From the NCBI GenBank assembly GCA_903861205.1, contig CAIOTC010000020.1, forward strand, positions 39,976-103,975: a stretch of DNA of 64,000 bases, in the 5' to 3' direction. The notes under the pieces were generated by a model. It worked only from the letters and a program-made list of their open reading frames with translations, did not search any database and was not told the DNA's origin. Of this stretch, positions 3,038 through 38,997 are shown in pieces. Each line of letters starts with the position of its first letter. Position 1 is the first letter of the stretch. The position numbers and the translations under genes were made by a program. The stretch comes from an uncultured bacterium (lineage in GTDB: Bacteria > Patescibacteriota > Minisyncoccia > Phycocordibacterales > DATDWN01).

Positions 3038-3061
3038 AAATTCATTAAAAATTCTAAATTC
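3038..3061. repeat. AT-only intergenic repeat aaattcattaaaaattctaaattc (identical copy at 9138-9161)
   Basis: 24-nt identical string inside a pure-AT intergenic block (2972-3098) built from AATTTAGAATTT and TAAAATTT words. Confidence 0.7.
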
Positions 3062-3137
3062 AAAAATTAAAAATTTAATTTGTATAGCTTCTTGTTTTAT
3101 GTTACACTATCCACAATTATTTATATTTACACAATTT

Positions 3138-9067: not shown

Positions 9068-9137
9068 GTAAAATACAATTTTTAATTTAAAATTTATAAT
9101 TTAAAATAAATTTAAAATGACTGAATTTTTAAATTTT

Positions 9138-9161
9138 AAATTCATTAAAAATTCTAAATTC
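9138..9161. repeat. second copy of AT-only repeat aaattcattaaaaattctaaattc
   Basis: Identical 24-mer to 3038-3061. Both copies lie directly downstream of a PBP gene and upstream of the next gene. Confidence 0.7.
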
Positions 9162-9178
9162 TAAATTTTAAATTATTC

Positions 9179-12452: not shown

Positions 12453-15179
12453 ATGGAGCAATTTAAAAGTCCGCAGGAGGAAATAAATTTTTTGCGCGAG
12501 CAGATTACCAGCAAAGAAAAAGTCTTGAGCGAAAAAGATTTCAGCGTGGAAAAAGATACCCTGGTTCACGATCAGATTTCTCGTTACCGCGATGCCAGTC
12601 CGGCCGAAATTTTGCACCAGGATTACGCGCTCACCCCGGAAAACACAAATGAAATTGTTCTGAATCTGACGCCGGAACGCCACGACAAAAAAATAAAAGA
12701 GTTGGTTAAAATAATGGACGAAAAAGGCGTCAAAAATGCGCTGTCTGTTTTGTCGAAGTTCAAAGATCCGCACCTGGAAGACGACTTTCACCGCTTTTTG
12801 GTTCAATATGTCAAGGGTGGCAAGAAGCCGAAAGATTTCGCGCCAAAGGAAGAAAAATTCCGCGGCGTTGACATGGTTTTGTACGAGGTTGTTTTGCCGG
12901 AGGATAATTTTTCCTCACCTGGTGAGGAAAAAAACAAAACACTCAAGGAACTTATTTCCAGCATGGAGCAATTTTTTTCCGGCATGCTTTCGGTCACGAC
13001 TAAAGACGAAAAAGGAAATTACATTTCGCTGGAAATCGCCAATTCAAACGGCAGTGACCAGTTTATTTATTATGTGGCTGTGCCGGCAAAATACAAAGAT
13101 CTTTTCGAAAAGCACATCATTTCCGTTTTTCACAACGCGCGTTTGACGGAGAAAATCGACGACTACAATGTTTTCAACGAGGAGGGTTTTTCCGTCGGTT
13201 CGTGTTTGAAGACGAAAGAAAATCCGATTTATCCGTTCAAAACTTACGAGCAATTTGACCACGATCCGATGAATGTGGTGCTCAACAGCTTTTCCAAAAT
13301 CAAAAAAGACGGTGAGGGTGCCGCGCTTCAGATTATTTTTGCTCCGCGAGGGGATTATTATTACAAACGCTACGAATACGCGGTCAAGCAAATTGAAAAA
13401 GGCGTCAAAACGAAGGAAGCGATAAATCAGCCGGAAACATTTTGGGGTGAAGCGGGTCAGACATTAAAAACTTTGTTTGTTGAGCCCGAGAAAAAGGACA
13501 AGGACAAACCTGTCGACAATGATGCAATAACCAAAATCCGGGCCAAAATGTCGAGCACTATCGTGGCCACCAATATTCGCTTGGTTGTTTCGAGCCAGAA
13601 TCAAACCGACGCCGAAAATATTTTGCATACCATCGAGTCTAGCTTCAACCAATTTTCCGACACTGCTTCAAACGGTTTAGTCTGGAAGCACATTGAAAAG
13701 AGCGCGTTGCAAAAAATGTTCCGCGAATTTTCATTCAGAATGTTTAATGGAGATGAGACGATTCCACTCAATTTGCACGAGCTGACAAGTCTTATTCATT
13801 TCCAAACCAACACACTTTCGCCAACGCCACAGCTCAAACAAACACAGTCTGTCACTGCGCCTGCGCCGGCCGATATGAAAAATAGCGGGACATTTTTGGG
13901 TGTCAACAATTTCCGCAATGTTGAGACAAAAGTTTTCATCGGCGACGAAGATCGTCTGCGGCACATGTACATCATCGGCCAGACCGGTGTTGGAAAAACT
14001 GTTTGTTTGAAAAATATGGTTATCCAGGATATCGAGCGAGGCAACGGCTGTTGTTTTATCGATCCGCACGGCACAGATATTTTGGACGTTTTGGCCAACA
14101 TTCCGCAGGAGCGTTTTCAAGATGTCATTTATTTTGATCCGAGTTACACGGAACGGCCGATGGCGCTCAATATGCTCGAATACGATCTGCGATTTCCGGA
14201 ACAGAAAACTTTTGTGGTCAACGAACTGTTTTCCATTTTCCAAAAATTATACGGCGGGGTTCCGGAGTCGATGGGGCCGATTTTCGAGCAATATTTTCGC
14301 AACGCCACCATGCTGGTTATCGAGGATCCGGAGACCGGTTGTACACTGCTCGACGTTTCGCGCGTCATGGCCAACAAAGCTTATCGCGATTTGAAAATTT
14401 CTCGCTGCAAAAATCCGGTGGTGGTGGAGTTTTGGAAAGAAGTGGCCGAAAAAGCCGGTGGGGAAGCGGCGCTCTCGAACATTGTGCCGTACATCACCAG
14501 CAAGTTCGATGTCTTTTTGGCCAACGACATCATGCGGCCGATTATCGCGCAGGAAAAATCGTCCTTCAATTTCCGCGATATCATGGATAATAAGAAAATT
14601 TTGCTGGTCAACCTTGCTAAAGGCCGGCTCGGCGACATCAACGCAAACTTGATTGGGCTCATTTTGGTCGGAAAGATTTTGATGGCGGCACTCTCGAGAG
14701 TAGATTTGTTGACACCCGGTGTCAATGAGTTGTCCCCATTTTATCTTTACATCGACGAGTTCCAAAACATCACCACTGATTCGATTTCCACTATTTTGTC
14801 GGAGGCGCGCAAATATAAATTGTCGCTGACCGTAGCGCACCAGTTCATTGCCCAGCTCCAGGAAAAAATTCGCGACGCCGTTTTTGGCAATGTCGGCTCG
14901 ATTGTCTCTTTCCGCGTTTCAGCCGAGGACGCCGAATATTTGGAAAAACAATTTTCACCTGTTTTCACAGCCAAGGATATTATGAATATTGATAACTTGA
15001 ATGCGTACGTCAAAATGCTGGTGGATGGCCGGGCCGAAAAAGCATTTAACATCAAAGAACCATTTCCGCCAGCCGGCAATCCGGCTATCGTCGAATCATT
15101 AAAACAACTTTCATATCTGACATATGGTGGCAATCGCGCCGAAATCGAAGCGGGGATTTTGCAGAAGTACAAAAAGTAA
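12453..15179 (+). CDS. P-loop ATPase of the TraG/VirD4 coupling-protein / HerA-FtsK superfamily with a large uncharacterised N-terminal domain
   Basis: Walker A YIIGQTGVGKT, CFIDPHGTD, Walker B LYIDEFQN, arginine finger-like VAHQF. About 470-aa N-terminal domain with no obvious homology. The start is most likely the ATG at 12453, directly after tgtatataat (the track ORF begins at 12417). Confidence 0.55.
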   Translation: MEQFKSPQEEINFLREQITSKEKVLSEKDFSVEKDTLVHDQISRYRDASPAEILHQDYALTPENTNEIVLNLTPERHDKKIKELVKIMDEKGVKNALSVLSKFKDPHLEDDFHRFLVQYVKGGKKPKDFAPKEEKFRGVDMVLYEVVLPEDNFSSPGEEKNKTLKELISSMEQFFSGMLSVTTKDEKGNYISLEIANSNGSDQFIYYVAVPAKYKDLFEKHIISVFHNARLTEKIDDYNVFNEEGFSVGSCLKTKENPIYPFKTYEQFDHDPMNVVLNSFSKIKKDGEGAALQIIFAPRGDYYYKRYEYAVKQIEKGVKTKEAINQPETFWGEAGQTLKTLFVEPEKKDKDKPVDNDAITKIRAKMSSTIVATNIRLVVSSQNQTDAENILHTIESSFNQFSDTASNGLVWKHIEKSALQKMFREFSFRMFNGDETIPLNLHELTSLIHFQTNTLSPTPQLKQTQSVTAPAPADMKNSGTFLGVNNFRNVETKVFIGDEDRLRHMYIIGQTGVGKTVCLKNMVIQDIERGNGCCFIDPHGTDILDVLANIPQERFQDVIYFDPSYTERPMALNMLEYDLRFPEQKTFVVNELFSIFQKLYGGVPESMGPIFEQYFRNATMLVIEDPETGCTLLDVSRVMANKAYRDLKISRCKNPVVVEFWKEVAEKAGGEAALSNIVPYITSKFDVFLANDIMRPIIAQEKSSFNFRDIMDNKKILLVNLAKGRLGDINANLIGLILVGKILMAALSRVDLLTPGVNELSPFYLYIDEFQNITTDSISTILSEARKYKLSLTVAHQFIAQLQEKIRDAVFGNVGSIVSFRVSAEDAEYLEKQFSPVFTAKDIMNIDNLNAYVKMLVDGRAEKAFNIKEPFPPAGNPAIVESLKQLSYLTYGGNRAEIEAGILQKYKK
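14709..14725. repeat. palindromic repeat ttgacacccggtgtcaa (GACACC[C/G]GGTGTC family) inside the ATPase CDS, encoding LTPGV
   Basis: Perfect 17-nt palindrome. A member of a family with at least 8 copies in the window. Confidence 0.75.
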
Positions 15180-15423: not shown

Positions 15424-15501
15424 ACCAAACCTCCTGATACAATTATACTACCAACCAATATAAAAGTCAAGCTAAACTGTGGATAACTAAACCAATTTTT
15501 G

Positions 15502-15520
15502 GACACCGGGTGTCAACGAA
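15502..15520. repeat. palindromic repeat family copy gacaccgggtgtcaacgaa (intergenic), followed by aggagggct as in the uvrC copy
   Basis: Shares about 31 nt with 24838-24868 (ggacaccgggtgtcaacgaaWaggagggctWa). Confidence 0.75.
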
Positions 15521-15541
15521 TAGGAGGGCTTAGTTGAGCCA

Positions 15542-18505: not shown

Positions 18506-20590
18506 ATGCAATTTAAGATAAAAAAAGATTTTCAACCTGCTGGTGATCAGCCACAGGCGATTGAGAAGCTGGTCAGTGGTGTCAAAAAAGGTCTGAAGCA
18601 CCAGACCCTTTTGGGCGTGACCGGAAGCGGAAAAACTTTCACCGTGGCCAATGTTATCCAGGAAATTCAGAAGCCGACGTTGGTCATTGCCCACAACAAA
18701 ACTTTGGCCGCTCAACTGGCGCAGGAGTATCGCGAATTTTTTCCCGAAAATGCCGTGCACTATTTTGTTTCGTACTACGACTACTATCAGCCGGAAGCTT
18801 ACATGCCTGTTTCGGACACATACATAGAAAAGGAAGCGATGATAAACCAGGAAATTGAACGTTTGCGACACGCCTCGACGCAGGCGCTTCTGACGCGCAA
18901 AGATGTCATTATTGTGGCGTCTGTTTCGTGCATTTACGGCCTCGGTTCGCCGGTGGAGTATGAAAAAGTTAATTTGAAAATTGGCGTAGGCGAGCGAGTT
19001 TCCCGCGCAGAATTCATCCGCAAACTAATCGACATTCATTTCGAACGCACTACGGCGGATTTGTCGCCGGGACAGTTTCGGGCTATCGGCAACATGGTGG
19101 AAATCATGCCAGTGTCGGAAAAGTGCATTTTTAGAATTGAAATCGAAAATAGTAAAATCGAGAAAATTTTAAAAATCGACGCGATAACGAGAACGATTTT
19201 GGAAGAGACACAAGTTTTCTTTTTGTTTCCAGCCAAACATTTTATTTCCACCAAAGAACAAAGCGCGCAGGCTTTCAAAACAATCAAAGCGGAATTGGCC
19301 GGGCAATTGAAAAAATTTGAAAAGGAGGGAAAACTTTTGGAGGCGGAACGTCTCAAGCGACGAACGAGCTACGACTTGGCGCTTATTCGAGAGATTGGAT
19401 ATTGCAACGGAATCGAAAACTATTCGCGGCATTTTTCCGGCAAGTCAGCGGGCGAACCGCCGGACACTTTGTTGTCGTACTTCCCACATAAGGCTGATGG
19501 CTCGGCTGATTTTTTAACTATCATCGACGAGTCGCACGTTTCTGTCCCTCAAATTGGCGCGATGTACAACGGCGACGCGGCGCGCAAGCAAGCTCTGGTG
19601 GACTATGGTTTTCGCTTACCGAGTTGTCGTGATAATAGGCCTTTGAAGTTTGAAGAATTTGAACAGCGAGTTGGTCAGACGATTTACACCAGCGCCACGC
19701 CGAGCGATTACGAACGTGAGCACAGCACACAAGTGGTGGAGCAGGTTATTCGCCCGACCGGGCTTATCGATCCGGTGGTGGAGGTGCGCCCAATAGTGAG
19801 TGGAAAAGTGTCAAGGGTGCCCCTTGCCATGCGAAGCCAAATGGCAAAGGGCACCTTTGACACGAGTGAGAACTATCCCGGCCAGATTGCCGACTTCATT
19901 GTCGAAGCTGAAGAAAATATCAAGGCTGGCGGACGAGTGATTGCCACGACGCTGACCAAAAAAATGGCGGAGGACTTGTCGGAATATTTGAAAGAAAAAG
20001 GGATTAAAGCCGAATATTTGCACAGCGACATCAAAACGATCGAGCGAATCGAGATTTTGACCAACTTACGTAAAGGGCCGGAAAACGGTGGTTTTGATGT
20101 GCTTGTCGGAGTGAACTTGCTCCGCGAAGGTTTGGATTTGCCGGAGGTGACACTCATCGGCATTTTGGACGCGGACAAGGAGGGATTTTTGCGTAGCGAC
20201 ACATCGCTCATTCAAATCATCGGCCGCGCCGCCAGAAATGTAAAAGGCAAAGTGATTTTATACGCCGACAGCGTGACCAAGTCGATGAAATTTGCTATGG
20301 ATGAAACGAATCGCCGCCGAGCAATCCAGATTGCTTACAATACAAAACACGGCATCACTCCGAAAACGATTATTAAAAAAATTCAGGATATCACCGACCA
20401 ACTGCAATCCAAACACCAAAAAACTGTCAAAGAACTTTTAACCTTCGATATTAAAACGGAAAAAAATATCAAGTCGGTTATAAAATACAAAGAAAAACAG
20501 CTGAACTCCGCCGTCAAAATCCTCGACTTCGAAACAGCAGCGCTTTTGCGTGACGAAATTGTGGAGTTGACAAAGTTGGTGGAAAAATAA
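18506..20590 (+). CDS. uvrB: excinuclease ABC subunit B
   Basis: 694 aa with helicase motifs GVTGSGKT and DESH, a beta-hairpin region and the C-terminal UvrB/UvrC interaction motif (...AAL LRDEI...). Confidence 0.95.
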   Translation: MQFKIKKDFQPAGDQPQAIEKLVSGVKKGLKHQTLLGVTGSGKTFTVANVIQEIQKPTLVIAHNKTLAAQLAQEYREFFPENAVHYFVSYYDYYQPEAYMPVSDTYIEKEAMINQEIERLRHASTQALLTRKDVIIVASVSCIYGLGSPVEYEKVNLKIGVGERVSRAEFIRKLIDIHFERTTADLSPGQFRAIGNMVEIMPVSEKCIFRIEIENSKIEKILKIDAITRTILEETQVFFLFPAKHFISTKEQSAQAFKTIKAELAGQLKKFEKEGKLLEAERLKRRTSYDLALIREIGYCNGIENYSRHFSGKSAGEPPDTLLSYFPHKADGSADFLTIIDESHVSVPQIGAMYNGDAARKQALVDYGFRLPSCRDNRPLKFEEFEQRVGQTIYTSATPSDYEREHSTQVVEQVIRPTGLIDPVVEVRPIVSGKVSRVPLAMRSQMAKGTFDTSENYPGQIADFIVEAEENIKAGGRVIATTLTKKMAEDLSEYLKEKGIKAEYLHSDIKTIERIEILTNLRKGPENGGFDVLVGVNLLREGLDLPEVTLIGILDADKEGFLRSDTSLIQIIGRAARNVKGKVILYADSVTKSMKFAMDETNRRRAIQIAYNTKHGITPKTIIKKIQDITDQLQSKHQKTVKELLTFDIKTEKNIKSVIKYKEKQLNSAVKILDFETAALLRDEIVELTKLVEK

Positions 20591-21148: not shown

Positions 21149-23917
21149 ATGAAAAAAGAACAAAAAATAATCGGCGAAAAAATAATCGTCAAAGGCGCGC
21201 GGACACATAACTTGAAAAACATCACGGTGGAGATGCCGCGTAATAAGATGATTGCTTTCACCGGATTGTCTGGAAGTGGCAAATCGTCGCTGGCTTTTGA
21301 CACTATTTTTGCCGAGGGTCAGCGCCGATACGTGGAGTCGCTTTCGTCGTACGCGCGGCAGTTTTTGCGCCAAATGCAAAAGCCGGACGTGGATGAGATT
21401 GTTGGTCTTTCGCCGGCAATTTCCATTGATCAGAAATCGCGTTCAAACAATCCGCGTTCGACCGTGGCGACCATCACCGAGATCTACGACTACTTGCGCA
21501 TTTTGTATTCGCGCGTCGGACATCCGCACTGTTTGGTTTGCGGTGAGGAAATCAAAAAACTTTCCAACGAGGAAATCAAAAATTTTGTGCTGGAAAAAAT
21601 CGCGGTATACAAGAAGGATATTAAATCTAAGAATTTGTTGACACTTAGTGTCGGGGACGGGAAAATGGCGGTGAAAAAAGAAGATCAAATCAAGCAAGCT
21701 ATTTCTGATGCGAAAAATCGAATGTACATAGAGATTTTTGCGCCGGTGGTGCGAGGACGAAAGGGCGAATACTACCAGTTGCTTTACGATTTGCTCGGCA
21801 AAGGTTACTCGCATGTGCTCGTCGACGGAGTTCGCAAATCTTTGCGCGACAGAATTGAGCTGACAAAAACAAAACGGCACTCAATTGACGTTTTGGTCGA
21901 CAGCATCAGCATGTTGGATTTTGTAAATGATCAAAAAAGCGCCGAGGAAAGGTTGTCGGAAGATTTGGAAAAAGCTCTGCATGAGTCCGATGGTGTCGTT
22001 CGAATCGTTTTTAAAGGTGAGGATTCGTTGACACCCGGTGTCAAAGTCTCCCAGACACCGGGTGTCAACGAATCTGCAGAAAAAGAATTTTTCATGTCCA
22101 ATAAACTTTCGTGTCCAAACGACGGCTATTCATATCCGGAAGTTGAACCTCGGTTGTTTTCTTTCAACTCGCCGTATGGCGCTTGCCCGGAATGCAACGG
22201 TCTCGGTACACGATATTTTTTTAGCAAGGAAGTTTGTCCGGTCTGCCACGGCGCGCGATTGCGACCGGAAGCGCTCCATGTGACTTTGGGTAATAGCCCT
22301 AGGTCTCACCTAGGGCAGAATATTAATGGTCTAAATATTGTGGAACTGACAGCCATGTCAATCAAAGACTGCTACGATTTTTTTGAACATCTCAAATTGA
22401 CCGAGCGCGAAAAAAGTATCTCCAAAGTGGTTTTGCGAGAAATCGAATCGCGTTTGCTTTTCATGCTCAACGTCGGCATCGAATATCTCCAGCTCGATCG
22501 CCGAGCTCATACACTTTCTGGCGGAGAAGCCCAGCGTATTCGCTTGGCGTCACAACTTGGCTCGGGACTCGTCGGCGCGTTGTATGTACTCGACGAACCG
22601 ACCATCGGACTTCATTCCCGCGACAACGCTCGGTTGGTGGAAACTTTGCTCGAGTTGCGCAATCTCGGCAATACTATAATAGTGGTCGAGCACGACGAGG
22701 ACACAATTTTTGCTTCGGATTATTTGGTGGACATCGGACCAAAAGCTGGCGTGCACGGCGGGGAAGTGGTGGTTGCCGGGTATCTTGACGAACTTATCTC
22801 GGCAAAAAAGAACGAGTCTGGATCGCTCACGCTGGATTATTTGCGCGGTGACAAAATTATTGAGTTGCCTGAGTCTCGTCGAGAGTCGCCAAAAGGTGAG
22901 TTACAAATTCGCGGTGGAAAAATTTTCAATATTAAAAATTTGAATGTCGATTTGCCGCTGGGGAAATTTGTGGCGGTGACTGGTGTGTCCGGCTCTGGCA
23001 AGTCGTCTTTTGTTTACGAAATTTTGCACAAAAATTTGCAGGCGCGTTTTGAGCGTAAATATCGCAGCGCCGAAATTTTCAACTGCAAATCTTTCGCCGG
23101 AACCGAATATCTCGGCCGAGCCATTTTGATCGACCAGTCGCCGATTGGCCGAACCCCGCGCAGCAATCCAGCCACTTACACAGGCAGTTGGACGTTTATT
23201 CGCCAACTTTTCGCCGAAACTGCCGAGGCGCGAGCGCGCGGATGGAAAGCCAACAGATTTTCATTTAACGTCAAAGGTGGGCGGTGCGAAGTTTGCGGCG
23301 GCAACGGAGAAATTGAAGTGGAGATGCACTTTTTGCCGACGGTTTACGTGCCGTGCGATGTCTGTCACGGCCGGCGATTTACCAAAGAAACGTTGGAAGT
23401 AAAATACAAGCACAAAAATATTTACGACGTGCTTTCGATGACTGTCGAGGAGGCGCTGAAATTTTTCGAGGACATTCCAGCGGTGGCCGATCGTTTGAGA
23501 ACACTCAATGAAGTTGGCCTCGGATATTTGCAACTTGGCCAGTCAGCTACAACACTTTCGGGCGGTGAAGCCCAACGCGTCAAAATTTCCAGCGAGCTTT
23601 ATCGTCCGCACTTGCAGAAAACGATTTACTTGCTCGACGAGCCGACGATCGGTTTGCATTACGAGGACGTTAAAAAACTGATCGAAATTTTGCAAACCTT
23701 GGTCAATCACGGAAACACGGTGGTGGTTATTGAGCATAACATGGATATTATCAAGTCATGCGATTATGTCATCGACATCGGACCGGAAGGCGGAGATGGT
23801 GGCGGACAACTGGTGGCCAAAGGCACGCCGGAGGAAATAGCGAACACAGAGAAATCCTACACCGGGCAGTATCTCAGGAAAGCACTCAAGCAATACAAAG
23901 CGTACCGCTCGCATTAA
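21149..23917 (+). CDS. uvrA: excinuclease ABC subunit A
   Basis: 922 aa with two ABC modules (GLSGSGKSS / [17 protein letters not shown] twice) and zinc-finger Cys clusters. Confidence 0.95.
22022..22074. repeat. 53-nt perfect palindrome made of two inverted copies of gattcgttgacacccggtgtc inside uvrA (encodes [17 protein letters not shown])
   Basis: gattcgttgacacccggtgtcaaagtctcccagacaccgggtgtcaacgaatc. Same repeat family as 14709, 15502, 24838 and 56373. Confidence 0.8.
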
Positions 23918-24062
23918 TCCTCCTTTTTTAAAGGAGGTGCCCGCAGGGCGGAGGATTTTTTGAATTCAAAATCCCTCGGCCTTTGGCCACTCCCTTTAGG
24001 AAAGGGAGAATTAAATCCAAGACAAAAAGAAAAGGCGCCGGGATCTCCGGCACCTCTGGCGG

Positions 24063-24278
24063 CTAATCGAAATCTAGAGGGTTGATTTTCAGCCCTCGCC
24101 GTCGAGCTTCTCTCATGGTCCTTATGGAAAGAATCGTGAGTAAATCTTCCGGCGACCCCTCCCCGCTAATCTGAAAAATAATTTCTACGCCGGGTTGCGC
24201 GACGTATGTTTCGCCCCATAATCTAAAGTGGGGCATAATATCATTACCTAATTTGACTACATAAATCGTTCCTTGCAT
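24063..24278 (-). CDS. hypothetical small protein (71 aa)
   Basis: GGAGGAA RBS 5 nt upstream of the ATG on the minus strand. Hairpin-rich terminator region downstream. Confidence 0.4.
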   Translation of the reverse strand: MQGTIYVVKLGNDIMPHFRLWGETYVAQPGVEIIFQISGEGSPEDLLTILSIRTMREARRRGLKINPLDFD

Positions 24279-24313
24279 GTGCTTCCTCCGATAATTATGA
24301 TATAATAGATAAA

Positions 24314-25660
24314 ATGAATAGTCAAGCCATCAAAAAGAAAATAGCCAGGTTGCCGGATGCGCCTGGGGTGTATCAATTTTTGCGAGGGAAAAAGATTCTT
24401 TACATCGGTAAAGCGACATCTCTGCGCGATAGGGTGCGGAGCTATTTTGCCGGGGATATTGAAGTCACTCGCGGACCGCTAATTTCTAAAATGCTTGGGC
24501 GATTCGACGATATCAAATTTCAGAAAACTGATTCCGTTTTGGAAGCACTGATTTTGGAAGCGAATCTCATCAAAAAATATCAGCCGGAGGCCAACACAAT
24601 GGAAAAGGACGACAAAAGTTTTAATTTTGTTGTGATTACCGACGAGAATTTCCCGCGTGTTCTCGTTGTCCGCGGCAGGGAATTAGAAACATCGAGTGTC
24701 GGCGGCGAAGCAACGCAGTCACTTGGTGTTGGGAAATTATTGTATTCCTTCGGTCCCTTCACCAACGGCAGACAACTCAAGGAGGCAATGAAAATCGTCC
24801 GCAAACTTTTTCCATACCGCGATAGGTGTCAACCTGTGGACACCGGGTGTCAACGAAAAGGAGGGCTAAAAATAAGGCCATGTTTCAATCGCCAGCTCGG
24901 ATTGTGTCCGGGGGTTTGCACGGGAGAAATTAGCAAAAAAGATTATGCAAAAACGATAAAGAACATCAGGTTATTTTTTGAAGGTAATAAAAAACAAATC
25001 GTTAAAAATTTGGAAAAAGAAATGAAAATTTTGGCCAAAAATCGCGAGTTTGAAAAAGCCGGAAAAATAAAAAATAAAATATTCGCTTTGAATCATATCC
25101 GCGATGTGGCGCTGATTAAAAATGCGGATTCCCAAGGTCTGGCCTTTAATGCCCAATTCCCCAAGGACAGACCTTTGAATGCAGGGTTCAGAATTGAATC
25201 CTACGACGTTGCGCACATGTCAGGGCAAAATGTTGTCGGGGTGATGACGGTGGTGGAAAACGGCGAGACCAAAAAATCAGATTACAGAAAATTTAAAATT
25301 CGAGAAAATCCGGGAGTGAATGACACCAAAGCATTGGCGGAAATTTTGACGAGACGACTCGGGCACATCGAGTGGTCTTTGCCGAATCTGATCGTCGTTG
25401 ATGGGGGAGTGGCACAGAGAAATGTTGCAGAGAAAGTGCTGAAAGAAAACGGCGCGCAAATTCCCGTTGTGTCGGTTGTGAAAGACGATCATCACCGACC
25501 AAAACAAATTCTCGGTGACCCCGGTAGCAGAGCAAAGCTCGCTACGGGGCAGGCCGGCGGTTGGAATGAAATTGAGAGGCAGATTTTATTGGCTAACTCT
25601 GAAGCGCATCGCTTCGCCCTATCTTTTCATAAGCAATTAAGAAGTAAAAATTACCACTGA
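24314..25660 (+). CDS. uvrC: excinuclease ABC subunit C, short form (GIY-YIG plus RNase H-like endonuclease, no C-terminal HhH domain)
   Basis: GIY-YIG motif VYQFLRG...ILYIGKA...R, UvrB-interacting region and endonuclease motif ESYDVAHMSGQNVVGV. 448 aa against about 600 for typical UvrC. Contains two different repeat elements. Confidence 0.8.
   Translation: MNSQAIKKKIARLPDAPGVYQFLRGKKILYIGKATSLRDRVRSYFAGDIEVTRGPLISKMLGRFDDIKFQKTDSVLEALILEANLIKKYQPEANTMEKDDKSFNFVVITDENFPRVLVVRGRELETSSVGGEATQSLGVGKLLYSFGPFTNGRQLKEAMKIVRKLFPYRDRCQPVDTGCQRKGGLKIRPCFNRQLGLCPGVCTGEISKKDYAKTIKNIRLFFEGNKKQIVKNLEKEMKILAKNREFEKAGKIKNKIFALNHIRDVALIKNADSQGLAFNAQFPKDRPLNAGFRIESYDVAHMSGQNVVGVMTVVENGETKKSDYRKFKIRENPGVNDTKALAEILTRRLGHIEWSLPNLIVVDGGVAQRNVAEKVLKENGAQIPVVSVVKDDHHRPKQILGDPGSRAKLATGQAGGWNEIERQILLANSEAHRFALSFHKQLRSKNYH
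24825..24872. repeat. palindromic repeat family copy inside uvrC (ggtgtcaacctgtggacaccgggtgtcaacgaaaaggagggctaaaaa; encodes VDTGCQRKGG)
   Basis: 31-nt match to the intergenic copy at 15501-15531. Confidence 0.75.
25131..25184. repeat. about 54-nt palindromic repeat element, copy 2, in frame inside uvrC (encodes SQGLAFNAQFPKDRPLNA)
   Basis: About 88% identical to the intergenic copy at 1122-1175. Confidence 0.7.
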
Positions 25661-29591: not shown

Positions 29592-30918
29592 GTGCGTTGG
29601 GCTACGCAATGTTGAGGATTTTGATATCCTCAACATTGCACACTTGAAACGATTCGAGTCTTTCTCTCCACAAAGTAAAATTCTCTACTTTGCGGTGTAT
29701 GAAGATGATCCCGAAAAATTTGGCTGGTATAACAAACCATTTGACCGGACGCTAAATATACAAAAACTGGGCGTTTACGAGAATTTTGTTTTTGTGGTTG
29801 ACGACAGAATTTCTGACGAACAACTTATCGGCATTCGCTACATTCGCGTGGATAATATCTATCACGCGATAGAGAGAATTTGTCGACATGTTGTTTTGCA
29901 AGTTAATCCACAAGTAATTGGGGTGACTGGCAGTGTCGGAAAAACTACTGGCACAGCACTCATTCAGGGTGTATTGGATAAAAAATTCAGTTGTGGAAGA
30001 ATTTACTCAAAACGTCTGACTCCACTAACTTTATCCTCGTGGCTGGTCAATTTTCTTGAGCCGGAGCACCAAGTCTTGACTTTGGAATACTCGATGTATC
30101 GAAAAAATCACATCGACATTTTGACTGACATATTGAGACCGGATATTAGCGTGTTTATGAACATCAAAAGAGTGCATCTTGGTGTGCAGGGAATAAATAC
30201 GCTGGACGATATTGTGGATGGCAAACGAGCTTTGGTCGACAAATCTCGTGTGGCTTTGCTTAATATCGATGATACTCGCATCTCTCGACTGAAAAGAAAA
30301 GGTGATTTTGGGTTTTCTCTGTCCAATCAGAGAGCGGACGCTTTTGTGTCAATTGCTGGCGATGAAGCAATGCTTGTTTTGAATTACACGAATCAAACCT
30401 TACGATTTGCGCCTTACATAAAAACGAGTTTGTTTTACTACCAGGCCGTTGTCGCCGGACTTCTTGGGGCGTATCTTGGAGTTCCAGCAGATTCAATTGC
30501 CGAGGCTCTGGGAAATTTTAGGCCGGCGGAAAACAGAATCAACTGGCTGGACATTTTCGGCCAACAGGTTTTGTTTGATGGCGATGTCACAACCAGCGGA
30601 CGAATGTCGTCTCTCTCCGAGCACCACTACTCAACCAGTCTGTTGATGATCCATAGTTTTGATTTTGGTGAGGAAAATGTCGACTTGCAAGTCGATGACT
30701 TCAACCAAGTTTTTTCAAAGTTTGACGAAGTTAGGGTTCTGGATACAGAGAAAAATAGAACTGTTGTTTCGAGACATTCTTTTAGAAATATCATTTTTAC
30801 ACAAAAGAATGACTTTCTTTCAGACCTCTCGAAATTTGAGTTCAAAGTTCTTCACTTCGCAATTTATTTTAGGAAACACAAAGATTTAAGTTTTCTAAAT
30901 GAGTTTATAGCCGCTTGA
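29545..30918 (+). CDS. Mur ligase family protein (MurF-like paralogue outside the dcw cluster)
   Basis: P-loop VIGVTGSVGKTT and a Mur ligase central domain. AAGGAGG is 6 nt upstream of the ATG at 29545. Overlaps the preceding gene by 47 nt. Confidence 0.55.
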   Translation: MKLSPQTFLQIIQDAKCVGLRNVEDFDILNIAHLKRFESFSPQSKILYFAVYEDDPEKFGWYNKPFDRTLNIQKLGVYENFVFVVDDRISDEQLIGIRYIRVDNIYHAIERICRHVVLQVNPQVIGVTGSVGKTTGTALIQGVLDKKFSCGRIYSKRLTPLTLSSWLVNFLEPEHQVLTLEYSMYRKNHIDILTDILRPDISVFMNIKRVHLGVQGINTLDDIVDGKRALVDKSRVALLNIDDTRISRLKRKGDFGFSLSNQRADAFVSIAGDEAMLVLNYTNQTLRFAPYIKTSLFYYQAVVAGLLGAYLGVPADSIAEALGNFRPAENRINWLDIFGQQVLFDGDVTTSGRMSSLSEHHYSTSLLMIHSFDFGEENVDLQVDDFNQVFSKFDEVRVLDTEKNRTVVSRHSFRNIIFTQKNDFLSDLSKFEFKVLHFAIYFRKHKDLSFLNEFIAA

Positions 30919-30956: not shown

Positions 30957-31028
30957 TAAAAAACTTATGCACAAAAATTGTCCAGTCGGTATTGCTTTGA
31001 CTTTCCGCAAAGTTGTATAATTAAAGTG
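30957..31028 (+). promoter_or_regulatory. conserved promoter cassette A: aaaaaacttatgcacaaaaattgt ... tttccgcaaagttgTATAATtaaagt
   Basis: About 80% identical over about 70 nt to cassette B at 36538-36609. Contains the palindromic ACAAAAATTGT and an extended -10. Confidence 0.6.
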
Positions 31029-31063: not shown

Positions 31064-31666
31064 ATGGAAAACAATCTTGAAAATGTCGGGCAAACAACTC
31101 AAGCCGTTCCGAAAACAAACGGCGCCAAAAAAAGTTTGCTTGTCGCGCTGATTATTATCGTGGTCGCGTTGGCTCTGGCCGGCGGCTGGTATTATTGGAC
31201 GAGCAAAGCCAAGATGGCCAAGTCGACGCAGGTTGCCCTTCAATTGGCCGTGAACACTCCGGCCCGGACGAATATCACGCTTGCTTCTCTGGTGGGGGAG
31301 TCGAAAGTTGTTTTTCCGGATGTCGCGAAGCTTTTGCCCGTTGACCCGAAAAAAATGTCGAAAGAAAATAACGATTTGATTTTGCCGAACGCCGCGCAAA
31401 TCAGCATGAAAAATCTTTCATATGTCGACTCTCAAACAGGATTTTTTATAACATATCAAATCGCCAGCTCATCCGTTAAAGATTTTATGTCGTCGATCTC
31501 GCGTTTCGGCCAGGGAAAATGGCAGGTGACGGGCGGTTACTCTTCCAACTTCGCTGCCGTTCTCGATTTGCAAAACACCGTCTCCGGCGCGCTCGGCCAA
31601 GTCAAATATATTTTGTCCGGAACCGTAGGGCAGGTTGCCGTCAAAACCTTGGATAAAGTGAAATAA
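31064..31666 (+). CDS. membrane-anchored hypothetical protein (200 aa)
   Basis: Single N-terminal TM helix (LLVALIIIVVALALAGGWYYW). Precedes the 776-aa secreted protein. Confidence 0.5.
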   Translation: MENNLENVGQTTQAVPKTNGAKKSLLVALIIIVVALALAGGWYYWTSKAKMAKSTQVALQLAVNTPARTNITLASLVGESKVVFPDVAKLLPVDPKKMSKENNDLILPNAAQISMKNLSYVDSQTGFFITYQIASSSVKDFMSSISRFGQGKWQVTGGYSSNFAAVLDLQNTVSGALGQVKYILSGTVGQVAVKTLDKVK

Positions 31667-31755: not shown

Positions 31756-34086
31756 ATGCAGACGAAGACGGTTTTTCGGTTCTTTGTCATTGCGTTTTTT
31801 GCGTTTGCCGCCTTGCCCTTGTTTGGGCAGGTGGTGTACGAAGAAATTCAGATGCCAGTCAACTCCCTTGTGGGAAGCGTTGGAGTGGATGACTCGAATA
31901 ACTTCTGGATGTCGGGTGTTCAAAGCTTGAATGGTTCCGGATCCGGCAGATTGATTTTCGAGTTGGATCCAACCAAAACCATGGCTTCTTTTCTGGGATT
32001 TGCCGACGGGTACAATTCAAGGAAGCAAGCTGGGGCGACATACGTTTTCTACAATTCTTTTCCGCCCAAAGGGCCTCAAAATTTGTTCGGACAGAATGTG
32101 GATTCTTTGTCGCTTGTAACAACTCCGACCAGCTGGGTGTACGTTGGCCATTACATGGTGAACGTGTACCAAGCGGTTAACGGAGGCGTGAATCTTGTCT
32201 GTTCGGATTACACAATAGACGGAAATCCGAACCAGAAACCCACAGATCTTGTTGCCGGACCGTTCTCGAATACGGACGGGAGTTATTTTCTGTCTGGATT
32301 TGTGAATGCAACTCCGAAACTTTTCCAGCTCGGGGCACAAGGATCCGGCGGGCAATGCGATCTCAAAACCGTTCTGACGAGCGATCACCAGATCATCCAG
32401 GCCTACAGGCTTGGAACGGACATTTTGGTTGAAGAGTTGGCAACACCGACTCCAAACTCGCTCAATCTTCTGACGGAAATCGCGGTTTCCGCCAAAGGCG
32501 GTCCGCTGACCGTTTTGCTCGGACCCGTAGGGGACAACAATCCGCAGATCTTGACCGGCAGGAGCTCTGTTGACCTTTCGGTCGATCAGAAAACCAAAAC
32601 GGCCGTGATCACATATGCCGACAACACTGGCTTACACGCCATGTTGTGGCCTTCAATGCGCGAGTTTTACTCCAGCGCAAACGATCAGTCGGCGACCAAA
32701 CTGGCAACCGAGATTCGGGGGGTGTATTTTAATCCTCCATACATGATTCTCGGTGGCAACCCTGTCAATATAGGATTCCAGAGTAGCAAGGTTATTTTGG
32801 CGAACACCGATACTGGTGCAACATACCCTGTAATTGACAGCTCGACGGTGATTGACGGACTCAATGCCAAACTGTTTCCGTACAGCGTTTTTGCAGTCAC
32901 ATCAACCGGTTTTGTGGATTTTGTTGTGTATAATTCAAATTATCCAACTGATCCACATATACACACCTTTCGAGCCCAGATCCCTGGTGTCTCCCAATTC
33001 CCACCGACGACAGTCAGCAGCTTCACCGCCGACAACCTGTCGGTCACGGAAGGCGACGCTGTCACACTCGCTTGGAACACGACAAATGCCAACTCGGTCT
33101 CGATCGACAACGGCGTCGGCTCGGTTTCTGTTTCGGGGACGGCGCAAGTTGTTGTCAGCGGGACGACCACGTTCACTTTGACGGCTACTGGCTATGGCGG
33201 ATCTGCCACGGCCACGGTGACTGTCACGGCAACGCCGCGCAAACCGGCCATCAGCAAATTCTCTCTTTCCACGGGCGAAGCAACATCAACCGTGGCCCAG
33301 GGCAGCGTGCTGAGTGTGCTCGGAACGAACATGTGTGGACTGGTGACGGACATCACGTACGAAGTCGAGATCATTGCCACCATCCGACCATTGCCGTACT
33401 CAATCGGCGGTTGCCGGATGAGAATCACCGACGCAAGTGGCAACACCAGCTACCTGCCGATGAAATTCGGCATCACCTTCGCCACATCCACTCCGCCGCA
33501 TCAGTCGCAATCCAACGGGCAGATTCCGTGGAGTCAGACTCCCGGTGTTTACCAGTTGGTTGTCGAAAATCGCAATTGGGCCACCGACGCCTACGTGAGC
33601 GAGACGGATCCCGTTTCGATCACTGTGGTTCCGGTCAACCCTTCGCTCAACCGCGCAAATGACGGCACGAGCGATCCGCCGCTTGACATGACCGACGGAT
33701 CCGGCGCATCTGTCACGCCGAAAAATCCCGCCCAGCCCGGCGGAATGTTCCTTGCAAAGGGAACCGGCTTCGGCCAACCGACTGTGCCTCTTCCCGCCGG
33801 TATGGCGCCAGCAGATATTCACCTCTCCGACTGGGACAACATCCAGTCGCCGGCTGAAATCTGGGCGTATGTTTCGGAGGGCGGCAACTGGAACATGCAC
33901 CAACTGCCGATTCAACTCGCGGTCATGGACCCGAGCGACATCGGCACGCAGATTGTTGTGTTCGCCGTTCCGGACGATGTTAATCCGGACGCCGGCCAGC
34001 AAAACGCTTTCATGTTTTTCAAAATGGCAGACGGGACGACAACCCCGATCAAAGGGTTCCCGCTGTCGCCAAAGGTGGTGAAATGA
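31756..34086 (+). CDS. large secreted protein (776 aa), Gly/Thr/Ser-rich beta-domain protein with an Ig-like domain
   Basis: Signal peptide MQTKTVFRFFVIAFFAFAALPLFGQVV. Ig-like segment PTTVSSFTADNLSVTEGDAVTLAWNTTNANSVSID...TATGYGG. Confidence 0.7.
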   Translation: MQTKTVFRFFVIAFFAFAALPLFGQVVYEEIQMPVNSLVGSVGVDDSNNFWMSGVQSLNGSGSGRLIFELDPTKTMASFLGFADGYNSRKQAGATYVFYNSFPPKGPQNLFGQNVDSLSLVTTPTSWVYVGHYMVNVYQAVNGGVNLVCSDYTIDGNPNQKPTDLVAGPFSNTDGSYFLSGFVNATPKLFQLGAQGSGGQCDLKTVLTSDHQIIQAYRLGTDILVEELATPTPNSLNLLTEIAVSAKGGPLTVLLGPVGDNNPQILTGRSSVDLSVDQKTKTAVITYADNTGLHAMLWPSMREFYSSANDQSATKLATEIRGVYFNPPYMILGGNPVNIGFQSSKVILANTDTGATYPVIDSSTVIDGLNAKLFPYSVFAVTSTGFVDFVVYNSNYPTDPHIHTFRAQIPGVSQFPPTTVSSFTADNLSVTEGDAVTLAWNTTNANSVSIDNGVGSVSVSGTAQVVVSGTTTFTLTATGYGGSATATVTVTATPRKPAISKFSLSTGEATSTVAQGSVLSVLGTNMCGLVTDITYEVEIIATIRPLPYSIGGCRMRITDASGNTSYLPMKFGITFATSTPPHQSQSNGQIPWSQTPGVYQLVVENRNWATDAYVSETDPVSITVVPVNPSLNRANDGTSDPPLDMTDGSGASVTPKNPAQPGGMFLAKGTGFGQPTVPLPAGMAPADIHLSDWDNIQSPAEIWAYVSEGGNWNMHQLPIQLAVMDPSDIGTQIVVFAVPDDVNPDAGQQNAFMFFKMADGTTTPIKGFPLSPKVVK

Positions 34087-36537: not shown

Positions 36538-36609
36538 GAAAAAACTTATGCACAAAAGTTGTGTGGCGGCTATTGCCACACATTTCCGCAACGTAGTATA
36601 ATTAAAGTT
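36538..36609 (+). promoter_or_regulatory. conserved promoter cassette B: aaaaacttatgcacaaaagttgt ... tttccgcaacgtagTATAATtaaagtt, 7 nt before the ATG
   Basis: About 80% identical to cassette A. The -10 lies 7 nt from the start codon at 36610, implying a leaderless transcript. Confidence 0.6.
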
Positions 36610-38997
36610 ATGGACAGATCATTAAAAGTTTACGCGAAATGTTTTTTTGTTTTTACTTTGCTGTTTGTTGTTTCTTTCGGTTTGTTTGGCCAAGTCGCGC
36701 ATGCTCAGCTTCTCAACCCGCAACCGCCGTCTTGGACTTGGCCACCGTGTTCAACATGGAGTGGAACGAATGGCGGGTCATGCAATTATCCCTATCCTGG
36801 CAGTGGTTGTCAAGGATCCGTCTCCACAGTTTATTGTCCGATTTGTGACAGTTACCAGGGGTACACCAACGATTGTCCTAATCCGGGTGGAAATCTTTGC
36901 AATGACGGATCTGGCGGTGCAAACATATGCCAAAAAGATGGTGGCGGTTGCGGATGCGTCAAAACGTGGTCCGGCAACCAGTGCACTGATCCGGACGACG
37001 CTTGCTACGGCGAAGCCACTTGTTGCAACGGCTCATCTTGCAACAACAATGGCATCTGCGATGCCAACGAAACCACCTCTTCCTGCCCGCAGGGCTGCCA
37101 AGTCGGCCCGCAATTCAGATTTGACGTGAACAACTCACAAACTATAAATTATGGGGGCACCGCCGCTTACCAAATCCACGTCTACAATGATTCCAGCAAA
37201 AATAGTTTGAATTACAACATAACCTATTCCGGTCTGCCTTCATCCGCTTCCATCAGCTGGGGCTGGAGCGGGCAGAGCTACGCTTTGAGTTCGACGGACG
37301 GTGATAATTCCGACACAATCAGTTTGATGACCGTTGGCGGTCCGATCATGCCCGGCACGTACAACCTCACCATTACCGTTACCGGCACAACCAACGGCAT
37401 TTCAGTTCCGCAAACAAAATCTGCCGTTCTCATCGTCAGCCCCGCCAACTTCGCCCAGTGCAACGGTTTGTGGCACAACGCTCCGCTATCCGCCGCCTCG
37501 CCGGTACAGCCGGTCGGTTTGTACACTACTGTCAGTGGAAATCAAAACACCGTCAACTTGGTCTGGACCGGCACGGACAACGCCGTTTACCAACTTGGTT
37601 GCCGATTCTTCGGAGGCTCGTCATGCGCTTGGGACAGCTCAGTTTTCAAAATAGTTCCTAACGCCAACTATTCCGCTCCATTTTGGACAACGACTTCCGC
37701 TCCAAACATTTATCAAGACACCAGTTTCAAAGTGGCTTTTCTCAACTCAGGTGATGGCAAGAGATATTATAATTATATTTATTCGTCTTATGACGGCTTT
37801 TACGTCTGGCTGACACCGGACAATTCCGGCGCCACAGGCTACGGCACGCCAACGAACACCACCGACAGTCAAGGCAAACCGTGGAATTTTCAACGGCTCT
37901 CCGACAACACGGTGCAATACGAATGCGGCGTGCCTCTCACTCCAACCGGTTTCTGGGCCGGAGCCGGCACTTGCGGAACGGGACAAATCAATTTGTCGTG
38001 GAGCGCTTCGTACGGAGCAACAAGCTACACCGTGAAGGACGGAGCCAGGACGGTTTACAGCGGATCGGCTCTTGCCGTTTCCGACACCGGTCTTGTTGCG
38101 GGTTCCAATCACACCTACACGATCACCGCGACAGACGCTTCCGGCACTTCTGCTTCCGGTCCGACAACTCCGGCCACGACGGTCGCGCCAAGCTCATGCA
38201 CTCCGGTTCCGGTGACCACTTTCACCGCCTCGCCGACGTCCGGACCGGCGCCACTTTCCACAACGCTCTCATGGTCGGCCACGAACGGCGCCACTGGTTG
38301 CACGGCATCGTCCAATCCGGTCAACGCCAATTGGAACGGAGCAAAAACTCTGGCGCAATCACCGCAAACCATTTCCGGTTTGGCCGCCGGTTCCTACACA
38401 TTCAGTTTGTATTGCACGAACGCCACAGGTAATTCAACCACTGTTAGTCCCGTTGTCACGGTTGGTCCGGCGCTTCCGACGATCACGTCCTTTGTGGCAA
38501 ATCCACTGACCGGAACTTCGCCGCTATCCACGACTTTGACATGGGCATCATCGGGCGCCACAAGTTGTACCGCAAGCGGAGGATGGAGCGGTTCAAAAGC
38601 CACATCAAATGCAATCGGTGAAGTTGTGAGTGGATTAACTGTTCCAACAACTTTCAATCTGGTTTGCACAAATGCTTCTGGAAATAGTCCCCAATCTCAG
38701 GTTATAGTCACTCCTACAGCACCAAATTACACCCTAACTGTCAGCGTTACGACATCCCAGGGTGGTTATGTCACTGGTGCAGGAATAGATTGTGGTTCAT
38801 CAGGACACCCAACATGCACAGCGACATATCCTCAAGGTACTCCTGTCATTTTGACTCCAACACCTGTCGGCAACTGGAAATTCATCGGCTGGACAGGAGC
38901 GTGTACCGGCTCGGGCGCTTGCTCATTCAATGTGAACAGCAACTTGTCAGTTACCGCGCTATTTGTCCCGCGACCGATTAATTACCAGGAGTTCTAG
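36610..38997 (+). CDS. secreted Cys-rich protein with five tandem Fn3/Ig-like repeats and a C-terminal InlB B-repeat-like domain (795 aa)
   Basis: Signal peptide MDRSLKVYAKCFFVFTLLFVVSFGLFGQVAHA. About 25 Cys in the first 130 mature residues. About 90-aa repeats (..SPTSGPAPLSTTLSWSATNGATGCTAS.. / ..NPLTGTSPLSTTLTWASSGATSCTAS..). C-terminal GYVTGAGIDCG...GNWKFIGWTGACTGSGACSFNV. Start chosen at 36610 rather than the track start 36559. Confidence 0.7.
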   Translation: MDRSLKVYAKCFFVFTLLFVVSFGLFGQVAHAQLLNPQPPSWTWPPCSTWSGTNGGSCNYPYPGSGCQGSVSTVYCPICDSYQGYTNDCPNPGGNLCNDGSGGANICQKDGGGCGCVKTWSGNQCTDPDDACYGEATCCNGSSCNNNGICDANETTSSCPQGCQVGPQFRFDVNNSQTINYGGTAAYQIHVYNDSSKNSLNYNITYSGLPSSASISWGWSGQSYALSSTDGDNSDTISLMTVGGPIMPGTYNLTITVTGTTNGISVPQTKSAVLIVSPANFAQCNGLWHNAPLSAASPVQPVGLYTTVSGNQNTVNLVWTGTDNAVYQLGCRFFGGSSCAWDSSVFKIVPNANYSAPFWTTTSAPNIYQDTSFKVAFLNSGDGKRYYNYIYSSYDGFYVWLTPDNSGATGYGTPTNTTDSQGKPWNFQRLSDNTVQYECGVPLTPTGFWAGAGTCGTGQINLSWSASYGATSYTVKDGARTVYSGSALAVSDTGLVAGSNHTYTITATDASGTSASGPTTPATTVAPSSCTPVPVTTFTASPTSGPAPLSTTLSWSATNGATGCTASSNPVNANWNGAKTLAQSPQTISGLAAGSYTFSLYCTNATGNSTTVSPVVTVGPALPTITSFVANPLTGTSPLSTTLTWASSGATSCTASGGWSGSKATSNAIGEVVSGLTVPTTFNLVCTNASGNSPQSQVIVTPTAPNYTLTVSVTTSQGGYVTGAGIDCGSSGHPTCTATYPQGTPVILTPTPVGNWKFIGWTGACTGSGACSFNVNSNLSVTALFVPRPINYQEF

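Follow-up and report, generated by a model that had tools for sequence, protein, structure and literature searches.

Short palindromic repeats in frame in uvrC and other genes of a Patescibacteria genome

The sequence analysed here is a stretch of 64,000 nucleotides (referred to as the window) of contig CAIOTC010000020.1, which originates from an uncultured bacterium of the Patescibacteria, a phylum also known as the Candidate Phyla Radiation (CPR). Its uvrC gene carries two repeat elements in frame, a 57-nt element (E57), which recurs in an intergenic region, and a member of a second repeat family with the core GACACC. Both uvrC segments probably belong to the type of short palindromic repeats, dispersed in several copies, that is represented by repetitive extragenic palindromic (REP) sequences, REP doublets forming hairpins (REPINs) and Rickettsia palindromic elements (RPEs). 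The segments are repeated beyond chance, have the potential to form hairpins and are located in frame in hypervariable protein loops that are modeled with low confidence. They are absent from most orthologous genes, and elements of this kind recur in other housekeeping genes.

Results

The E57 element is shared by uvrC and an intergenic region

The host gene, the two copies of E57 and a neighboring hairpin are located as follows:

24314 to 25660, plus strand: uvrC, short form, host gene (448 aa; GIY-YIG at residues 18-91, UVR at 228-259, RNase-H-like at 293-435)
25128 to 25184, plus strand: genic copy of E57, in the UVR-RNaseH linker (hypervariable site 2, residues 272-290/291; 12/13 stem positions paired)
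1119 to 1175, plus strand: intergenic copy of E57 (perfect 13-bp stem, 16-nt loop)
1194 to 1246, unstranded: separate 20-bp perfect hairpin, directly 5' of the likely PBP2 start (ATG at 1259)

When we aligned the two copies of E57, 52 of the 57 nucleotides (91%) were identical. The first-pass annotation, which was made from the letters of the window, had proposed that one uvrC element is shared with the mreD-PBP2 intergenic region and had estimated about 88% identity, and our data confirm that the element is shared with the region between mreC and PBP2. A 25-nt core of E57 was found exactly twice in the window, and none of 100 shuffled sequences gave any match. The intergenic copy forms the perfect stem AAGGTCTGGCCTT/AAGGCCAGACCTT, and its RNA fold was calculated at -21.7 kcal/mol (z = -5.3). 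For the uvrC copy the same 13-bp stem had been assumed, but here only 12 of the 13 positions are paired, since GGACAG replaces GGCCAG. The 20-bp hairpin at 1194-1246 had also been described correctly; it is single-copy in the window and is not part of E57.

The uvrC copy has a length of exactly 19 codons, and its product is DSQGLAFNAQFPKDRPLNA(G) (residues 272-291). Only one of its three forward frames is open, and at the position where this frame reads CCT TTG the intergenic copy reads CCT TAA, which is a stop. The intergenic copy begins 1 nt past the stop codon of an 83-aa open reading frame (ORF), which follows mreC, and is located between this ORF and the PBP2 gene. The 83-aa ORF did not yield a Pfam match and presumably corresponds to mreD, judging by its position alone, between mreC and PBP2.

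In 7.3 kb of additional sequence of the same genome (about 71 kb scanned in total), we did not find further copies of E57. The exact-loop pattern CCTTTAATGCCCAATTNNCCAAGG gave no matches in the GTDB species genomes and the JGI metagenomes, and these data suggest that the E57 loop is rare or lineage-restricted. A blastn search with both uvrC elements in 1.2 Mb of DNA from 80 related species returned matches only in the same strain and in locus L001. When the peptides that the two elements can encode in any open frame were compared with 5.8 billion proteins, four candidates were obtained, and the only match reported at the insensitive E-value limit of this search was the methyltransferase of the window. 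Rfam 15 detected only two tRNAs in the window at gathering score, and its sub-threshold miRNA-like matches were generic hairpins. A terminator and promoter scan around the intergenic copy did not reveal anything meaningful, and there was no terminator-like tail. Four assemblies of the same strain (L002, L203-L205) were 100% identical across the elements; since these assemblies are independent, the elements are not assembly artefacts.

The second uvrC element belongs to the GACACC family

The elements of the GACACC family that carry exact core matches are the following:

24825 to 24872, plus strand: uvrC member of the family (at hypervariable site 1, which separates the invariant Cys172 from Cys190)
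22022 to 22074, unstranded: inverted dimer in uvrA (11-nt loop, perfect stem of 21 bp)
56373 to 56418, unstranded: inverted dimer in a methyltransferase ORF (18-bp perfect stem)
15493 to 15530, unstranded: intergenic single unit, 12 nt from the stop of yqeY (minus strand)
14703 to 14725, unstranded: single unit, in frame in a TraG/VirD4-like ORF (product DLLTPGVN)

The 13-mer GACACCSGGTGTC yielded seven exact matches and one weak match with two mismatches in the window, and 0.76 matches were expected. The exact sites are located in uvrC (24839), uvrA (22030, 22054), the TraG/VirD4-like ORF (14711), the intergenic unit (15502) and the methyltransferase ORF (56378, 56401). In total, the window contains six GACACC loci (two dimers, three single units and one degenerate unit), four of which are located inside ORFs, as is one of the two copies of E57. 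The uvrC element includes GACACCGGGTGTC, and its 31-nt core (24837-24867) is 97% identical to the intergenic sequence 15500-15530, with a similarity that reaches beyond the palindrome. On the 5' side of this core, there is a direct repeat, GGTGTCAAC (24826-24834), which shares nucleotides with the codon of Cys172. The uvrA dimer encodes 18 residues in a variable loop and is missing from 58 orthologues. Compared with it, the methyltransferase dimer has the opposite orientation, a related spacer and a different outer stem.

Both families share a common architecture, in which two inverted 13-nt near-palindromes (6-1-6) flank a 10-16-nt spacer, and they occur as dimers or as single units. The core of E57 is AAGGTC-N-GRCCTT and that of the other family GACACC-S-GGTGTC. 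The perfect stems of 13, 21 and 18 bp gave fold z-scores between -5.3 and -8.6. The two uvrC repeats had been called unrelated in the first-pass annotation; they do differ in sequence and both are in frame, but they follow the same paired 6-1-6 plan.

The elements occupy hypervariable sites of UvrC

To place the elements in the protein, we aligned UvrC with its 120 best homologues, and the nearest of these all came from metagenome-assembled genomes of Parcubacteria (Zambryskibacteria-like, Paceibacteria). All 120 sequences lack the HhH domain and have a length of 400-505 aa. The domain is indeed missing from UvrC of the window, but its absence, which had been linked to a tolerance for insertions, is on this alignment a clade-wide trait unconnected with the insertions.

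The alignment revealed four hypervariable indel sites, which comprise the two element sites and residues ~125-142 and 402-415. Site 1 is located between the first and the second cysteine of a 4-Cys motif (C172, C190, C198, C202), which is invariant among the orthologues. Many orthologues have just KCEPLSGKPCFN at this site, and others carry unrelated inserts of up to ~50 residues. Site 2 is the linker that leads from IQDVSLIK to FRIESYD, and it is 22 residues long in the window versus ~9 in the shortest orthologues. The E57 segment of this site is lacking in most orthologues including the nearest one (P0002). An AlphaFold2 model of UvrC based on a 53-sequence alignment reached a mean predicted local distance difference test (pLDDT) score of 79.6. 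In this model, residues 265-289 are coil with pLDDT <50, and residues 171-190 are coil with pLDDT ~67-73. A further remnant is present at site 3 (residues 402-415):

25519 to 25549, plus strand: decayed palindrome CCCCGGTAGCAGAGC-AAA-GCTCGCTACGGGG in uvrC (product PGSRAKLATG)

This palindrome is common to the window and P0002 only.

Palindromes recur at the same UvrC sites in related species

For comparison, we used the uvrC-region DNA of 80 related species (81 Paceibacteria loci, 1.28 Mb) and counted hairpins with a perfect stem of at least 12 bp and a GC content of at least 30%. Here, we found 130 perfect hairpins, 32 of them inside long ORFs. The uvrC gene accounts for 8% of the DNA and holds 13 of these 32 genic hairpins (binomial p = 1.9e-6); uvrA holds four and is not enriched. 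By these counts, recurrence in the UvrC linkers is statistically supported. Other perfect palindromes were present at the same UvrC sites in L001 (17 bp), L021 (14 and 11 bp), L022 (16 bp) and L026 (14 and 13 bp). The site-1 palindrome of L026 has two additional copies elsewhere in the L026 locus, and in L052 a single uvrC contains two copies of one palindrome family.

At site 2, homologues of E57 including the 3' flank were identified in L001, in L026 and, from protein sequence, in P0021. In L001, the UvrC of which is 71% identical to that of the window, the stem is degraded. In L026 (58% identical), we observed a perfect stem of ~19-20 bp with a compensatory change from G-C to A-T and a different loop. 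Remnants of E57 were detected at this site in P0005, P0035 and P0109, and the sister sequence P0002 does not have the element. It can be seen from a neighbor-joining tree that the site-2 carriers are scattered, and this pattern favors turnover or re-insertion at a hot spot. Alternatively, an ancient gain followed by many losses could have produced the same distribution. The proposal that uvrC tolerates repeated small insertions and constitutes a hot spot was supported by the four indel sites, the lineage-specific palindromes and the share of uvrC in the genic hairpins.

Inserts in uvrA and uvrB

The uvrA and uvrB genes of the window were compared with 48-58 orthologues, and additional palindromic inserts were found:

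19808 to 19863, plus strand: imperfect 23-bp hairpin GTGTCAAGGGTGCCCCTTGCCAT...ATGGCAAAGGGCACCTTTGACAC of a third family in uvrB, inside a window-specific 21-codon insertion
21629 to 21691, plus strand: window-specific 21-codon insertion in uvrA, with a degenerate GACAC-TTA-GTGTC unit at 21632-21654
22295 to 22330, plus strand: 12 window-specific codons in uvrA, an insertion that includes the palindrome CCCTAGGT-CTC-ACCTAGGG

The uvrB insertion (19805-19867) adds its 21 codons in frame and encodes KVSRVPLAMRSQMAKGTFDTS. The outer motif of the third family (GTGTCAAGG...CCTTTGACAC) is also present at UvrC site 2 of L011, L018 and L021 (VSRLNLDT, VSKGAFDT). Together with the dimer at 22022-22074, uvrA has three window-specific insertions. 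In the same comparison, ddl did not show any window-specific palindromic insert. The spacer between uvrA and uvrC (23918-24313) contains more G+C-rich palindromes (ATCCTCCTTTTTTAAAGGAGG...GGCGGAGGAT, CTCCCTTTAGGAAAGGGAG), and these resemble a repeat family encoding 'GEGxGV', which is in frame in UvrC and UvrA of other species (L011, L018, L065).

A wider superfamily of AAGGTC hairpins in metagenomes

We scanned metagenomes with the pattern AAGGTCTGRCCTT-N12-18-AAGGYCAGACCTT and found the AAGGTCTGRCCTT hairpin in at least 120 contigs. In part, the search pattern itself accounts for the conserved core and the perfect stems in this sample (ascertainment effect). Similar loops were found repeatedly, some of which (AAATCCAAATTCCC, AAATACTAATTCCC) are similar to that of the window (TAATGCCCAATTTCCC), and in one subfamily the elements are ~58-69 nt long. 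Among the matches listed, the variable R/Y stem position was complementary in 104 of 106 non-redundant copies, and 41 of 121 copies were in frame within long ORFs. The genic copies translate as QGLTL...GQTL, RSDL...GQTL or KVRPF. Ten hosts were checked with Pfam, and these included ArgRS, Dus, SMC, a Mg-chelatase-like ATPase, topoisomerase I, KsgA, GatB, a 5'-3' exonuclease, a class II aaRS (GlyRS-like) and RNase H. In several species, the same loop of ArgRS, SMC or GatB was occupied by a hairpin of the superfamily.

In the unbiased 1.2-Mb sample of related DNA, the exact core was present only in L026 and L070, in both cases within uvrC. This corresponds to four sites per 1.2 Mb, compared with four sites in the 64-kb window and ~1 site per 32 kb in contigs in which the presence of a site was already established. 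A viral origin was rejected, because the AAGGTC hairpin was missing from 2.9 million viral contigs. Contig L111, which has inverted copies at both of its ends, was considered as an autonomous element and rejected as well; it encodes ordinary genes, and its ends are therefore assembly breaks at repeats.

Two side observations concern related sequences. In the metagenome contig L194 (11151-11190 and surroundings), the coding sequence of an RNase H gene includes tandem reiterations of an AAGGTC-type element (QGLALRINPQGQTLSQIQSGTLRINPQGQTLSQIQSGTLRINPKGSTL). Arrays of GGACACCCGGTGTCC palindromes are present in two unrelated viral contigs (L209:11240-11560, with a 72-nt tandem period, and L208:3870-3955).

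Other features of the window

Two AT-rich long palindromes (2974-3076 and 9074-9175) belong to a shared repeat family (D1/D3). Both are located directly 3' of penicillin-binding-protein genes, and the one at 2974-3076 has a 31-bp perfect stem. A 70-nt direct repeat (30958-31027 and 36539-36608; 79% identity), which terminates in GTATAATTAAAGT, precedes the ORFs 31064-31666 (no Pfam match) and 36559-38997 (weak C-terminal Flg_new_2), and it looks like a shared promoter or leader. A perfect 14-bp hairpin (GCAATGTTGAGGAT-tttgat-ATCCTCAACATTGC; 29606-29639), unique in the window, marks the junction between a hydrolase ORF and the second Mur-ligase ORF. The 776-aa ORF at 31756-34086 has no Pfam match and is located in the sole markedly G+C-rich stretch of the window (0.547 vs about 0.43). 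At 48009-50801, a 930-aa surface protein (Ig-like, CBM96) is encoded, and its gene is internally duplicated with a period of 762 nt (repeats D2/D11). In L203 (1-1735), which represents the same strain, the histidine-kinase/methyltransferase region is joined to a D5-primase-like gene that is not there in the window, and the reason for this junction is chimeric scaffolding or else a mobile element specific to the strain.

Discussion

Interpretation and alternative explanations

If the uvrC segments are dispersed palindromic repeats, the unit would be the 13-nt core, which would occur alone or, in inverted orientation, twice with a spacer of 10-16 nt in between, and such a pair would fold into a long hairpin. 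Copies would spread at low to moderate number across Paceibacteria genomes, presumably by copy-and-paste mobility and possibly via a single-strand hairpin intermediate. Intergenic copies would survive adjoining stop codons. Genic copies would survive only if their net length is a multiple of three, if the frame is free of stops and if the site they hit is a surface loop or interdomain linker that tolerates changes in length. Four sites of this kind exist in UvrC, which would therefore be hit repeatedly. The added peptides may be selectively neutral and the copies would afterwards decay via point mutation. Such decay is visible in the uvrC copy of E57, in the L001 copy and in the site-3 remnant.

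Several observations weigh against this interpretation. The first-pass annotation had suggested a miniature mobile or recombinogenic element, and the dispersed copies and their patchy distribution speak for it, but neither a pair of empty and filled sites nor a transposase was found. All same-strain assemblies are identical, and between close strains no empty/filled pair was seen. There is no target-site duplication: the flanks of the two E57 copies do not share a direct repeat, and AATGCRG near the uvrC copy belongs to the repeat unit itself. A GTAG/CGTC tag is not consistently present within 8 nt of any of 10 copies. Pfam did not detect a transposase among 46 ORFs of the window, a set that left out several ORFs of ~60-120 aa, and tblastn did not return an IS200/RAYT-like match (IS, insertion sequence; RAYT, REP-associated tyrosine transposase) in 2.1 Mb, which is a weak test because the IS608 TnpA and E. 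coli RAYT queries were approximate. Only two copies of E57 were found in ~71 kb, and copies with the same loop were missing from the genome, metagenome and protein collections searched. Moreover, homologous elements are present at the same UvrC site in the distant L001 and L026, which could reflect ancient vertical inheritance instead of repeated insertion. Finally, the outer stems differ among the copies and are still self-complementary in each of them, a pattern that plain copy-and-paste does not predict. Together with an inverted arm in L001, this pattern points to hairpin-templated (template-switch) synthesis at or near the elements, which we rate as a contributing process and not as the origin of the multi-locus families.

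The latter process would account for everything if the palindromes had been made in situ, by hairpin-templated synthesis or by inverted duplication of adjacent sequence, in loops that are merely tolerant. A 17-bp palindrome at site 1 of L001 (800-880; ACATGGTTTACATAGGG/CCCTATGTAAACCATGT) fits this idea, because the conserved K-P-C codons serve as its 3' arm, so that the 5' arm is host sequence copied in inverted orientation. Among the superfamily matches listed, 21 of 100 copies have a hairpin extended by at least 4 bp into differing flanks, and in 11 of 100 this extension amounts to at least 12 bp. The GACACC dimers of uvrA and the methyltransferase ORF likewise have different but perfectly complementary outer stems. 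However, synthesis in situ does not explain why the same 57-nt sequence, loop included, is present at two unrelated loci, why the match between 24837-24867 and 15500-15530 extends over 31 nt and past the palindrome, or why one 13-nt core recurs in at least 120 contigs and many genes. As sole origin of the elements it is rather unlikely; local synthesis of this kind probably adds to the perfection of the arms and to their outward extension. Vertical inheritance can be assessed along the same lines. Here, the uvrC segment would be old, the copy at 1119-1175 would be secondary (ectopic recombination or gene conversion from uvrC) and there would not be an element family in this genome. The homologous segments with their 3' flank (TTGGAATGCGGG / TTTGAATGCAGGG / TTGGATTCAGGG) at the same UvrC site of L001 and L026 and the finding of two copies only are compatible with such a history. 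We consider it very unlikely, since P0002 and most other orthologues do not have the segment and those that do are dispersed in the tree. In L026, a perfect hairpin of ~19-20 bp is present at a divergence at which neutral sites are saturated, the perfect stem is found in the intergenic copy and not in the genic one, and the same core is dispersed among many genes and intergenic sites elsewhere.

Selection for a function of the DNA or RNA would provide another reason for keeping the palindromes. They may be cis-acting sites for dimeric DNA-binding proteins (nucleoid, partition or uptake-sequence-like) or mRNA hairpins that tune stability or translation at domain boundaries, and coding copies would be kept for this purpose. 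Consistent with this, the core is kept across many lineages while loops and flanks vary, and protein operators typically have the form of such a 6-1-6 dyad, spaced by 2-3 helical turns. Covariation at the stem position was observed in 104 of the 106 copies listed, genic copies are located at domain boundaries, and several orthologous ArgRS, SMC and GatB genes retain perfect stems despite diverged loops. The iteron-like arrangement of the GGACACCCGGTGTCC palindromes in the two viral contigs suggests that the dyad may be able to act as a protein-binding site elsewhere. On the other hand, the conserved core and perfect stems partly reflect the search pattern, copies decay (uvrC stem mismatch, degraded L001 copy), the elements are missing in most orthologues, and neither an Rfam family nor a terminator-like tail was detected. 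DNA uptake sequences (DUS/USS) are present at ~1 motif per kb genome-wide. The density observed here is far lower (four core sites in 64 kb; four in 1.2 Mb), and with four AAGGTC-type and eight GACACC-type matches (seven exact) in the 64 kb we rejected an uptake sequence on this basis. Taken together, a cis-acting role as the reason for the in-frame copies is unlikely, and dispersed palindromic repeats remain our preferred explanation.

Comparison with known repeats

Intragenic REPs have been described before. Tagged with GTAG or CGTC, they occur as singles and dimers entirely within ORFs, and many are located in uvrA, uvrB, uvrD, recBCD and polA (Di Nocera et al., 2013; PMC3733652). They encode ~10-30 extra residues, sometimes with two inserts per gene, and the authors suggested that they are tolerated in flexible linkers, but most REPs are located just 3' of ORFs (PMC3733652). 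The REP unit has a stem of 5-13 bp, a loop of 2-20 nt, a size of 20-40 bp and a GTAG or CGTC tetranucleotide at one end (PMC3733652). The elements of the window resemble REPs as short stem-loop units (GACAC-CSG-GTGTC, AAGGT-CNG-RCCTT) that are present as singles and as head-to-head dimers with stems of 13-21 bp. As for REPs, uvrA, uvrB and uvrC all carry palindromic inserts, and intergenic copies adjoin stop codons. In contrast to REPs, the terminal tag is missing, the hosts belong to the Patescibacteria/CPR, many lineages have one core (AAGGTCWGACCTT) in common, and about one third of the copies are genic among the matches listed. With regard to the multicopy character of REPs, we counted six GACACC loci and two E57 loci in 64-71 kb. 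A RAYT (Y1 HUH transposase), which is a feature of REP/REPIN systems, was found neither among the scanned ORFs of the window nor by tblastn in 2.1 Mb with approximate queries.

REPINs consist of two inverted imperfect palindromes and a spacer, which together form a long hairpin; their arms are more conserved than the spacer, and singlets coexist with them (Bertels & Rainey, 2011; PMC3116915). They are extragenic, usually reach tens to hundreds of copies and are linked to a single-copy RAYT gene (PMC3116915). E57 and the dimers in uvrA and the methyltransferase ORF are similarly composed of two inverted units and a spacer in one hairpin; here, too, the spacer varies more than the arms, and single units accompany the pairs. 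They differ from REPINs by a low observed copy number, many genic copies and the lack of a RAYT in our searches, which is a weak test. RPEs (Ogata et al., 2000, 2002; summarised in PMC10969869) occur in frame in housekeeping genes that are unrelated to one another, likewise in a reduced genome. They are ~100-150 bp long, form the sequence families RPE-1 to RPE-10, add surface peptides while the protein stays intact, and are not known to have a dedicated transposase. The elements studied here also lie in frame at surface-compatible positions of unrelated protein-coding genes. Unlike RPEs they are 31-57 nt long, they appear unrelated to RPEs in sequence and they belong to a different phylum, and the same loop is recurrently occupied across many species. 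With miniature inverted-repeat transposable elements they share a small size, a non-coding nature, dispersal, inverted repeats and the ability to make in-frame fusions. In contrast, there is no target-site duplication, our analysis did not reveal a cognate IS whose terminal repeats match, and the whole element is a foldback and not a unique core between terminal inverted repeats. Because they behave like REPs, RPEs and REPINs but depart from these in the defining tag, size and extragenic location, we class them as untagged REP-like palindromic repeats that decorate CPR proteins. Our literature searches on such elements in CPR/Patescibacteria and on the core sequence did not retrieve anything relevant. 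In the literature searched, neither the occurrence in CPR nor a 13-nt core across the phylum nor the statistically supported recurrence in the linkers of UvrC is documented, and the phenomenon itself has clear precedents.

Biological implications

A more far-reaching idea, which we regard as doubtful, is that the 13-nt dyad AAGGTC-N-GACCTT (GACACC-S-GGTGTC in this lineage) is the recognition site of a putative trans-acting protein conserved across Patescibacteria, such as a hairpin-specific recombinase or a nucleoid protein. The hairpins in uvrC, in DNA-transaction genes and in aminoacyl-tRNA synthetases would then result from targeted integration into linkers or from selection for mRNA or DNA hairpins at domain boundaries. 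If this were true, there would be a phylum-wide system of protein-decorating hairpin elements, the stems of which are kept perfect by hairpin-templated repair.

CPR genomes have a size of ~1 Mb and are regarded as highly streamlined. Our data extend selfish palindromes inside genes, which had been documented in Rickettsia (RPEs) and few phyla (REPs), to the Candidate Phyla Radiation. They provide a countable case of recurrent linker use, at four positions of UvrC and at one position each of ArgRS, SMC and GatB, and they echo the earlier unexplained report of REPs in uvr genes. Such inserts inflate or fragment protein alignments and break metagenome assemblies at repeats. They also add spurious cysteines or charged loops, here within the Fe-S-type 4-Cys motif of UvrC, and annotators of CPR genomes should expect them.

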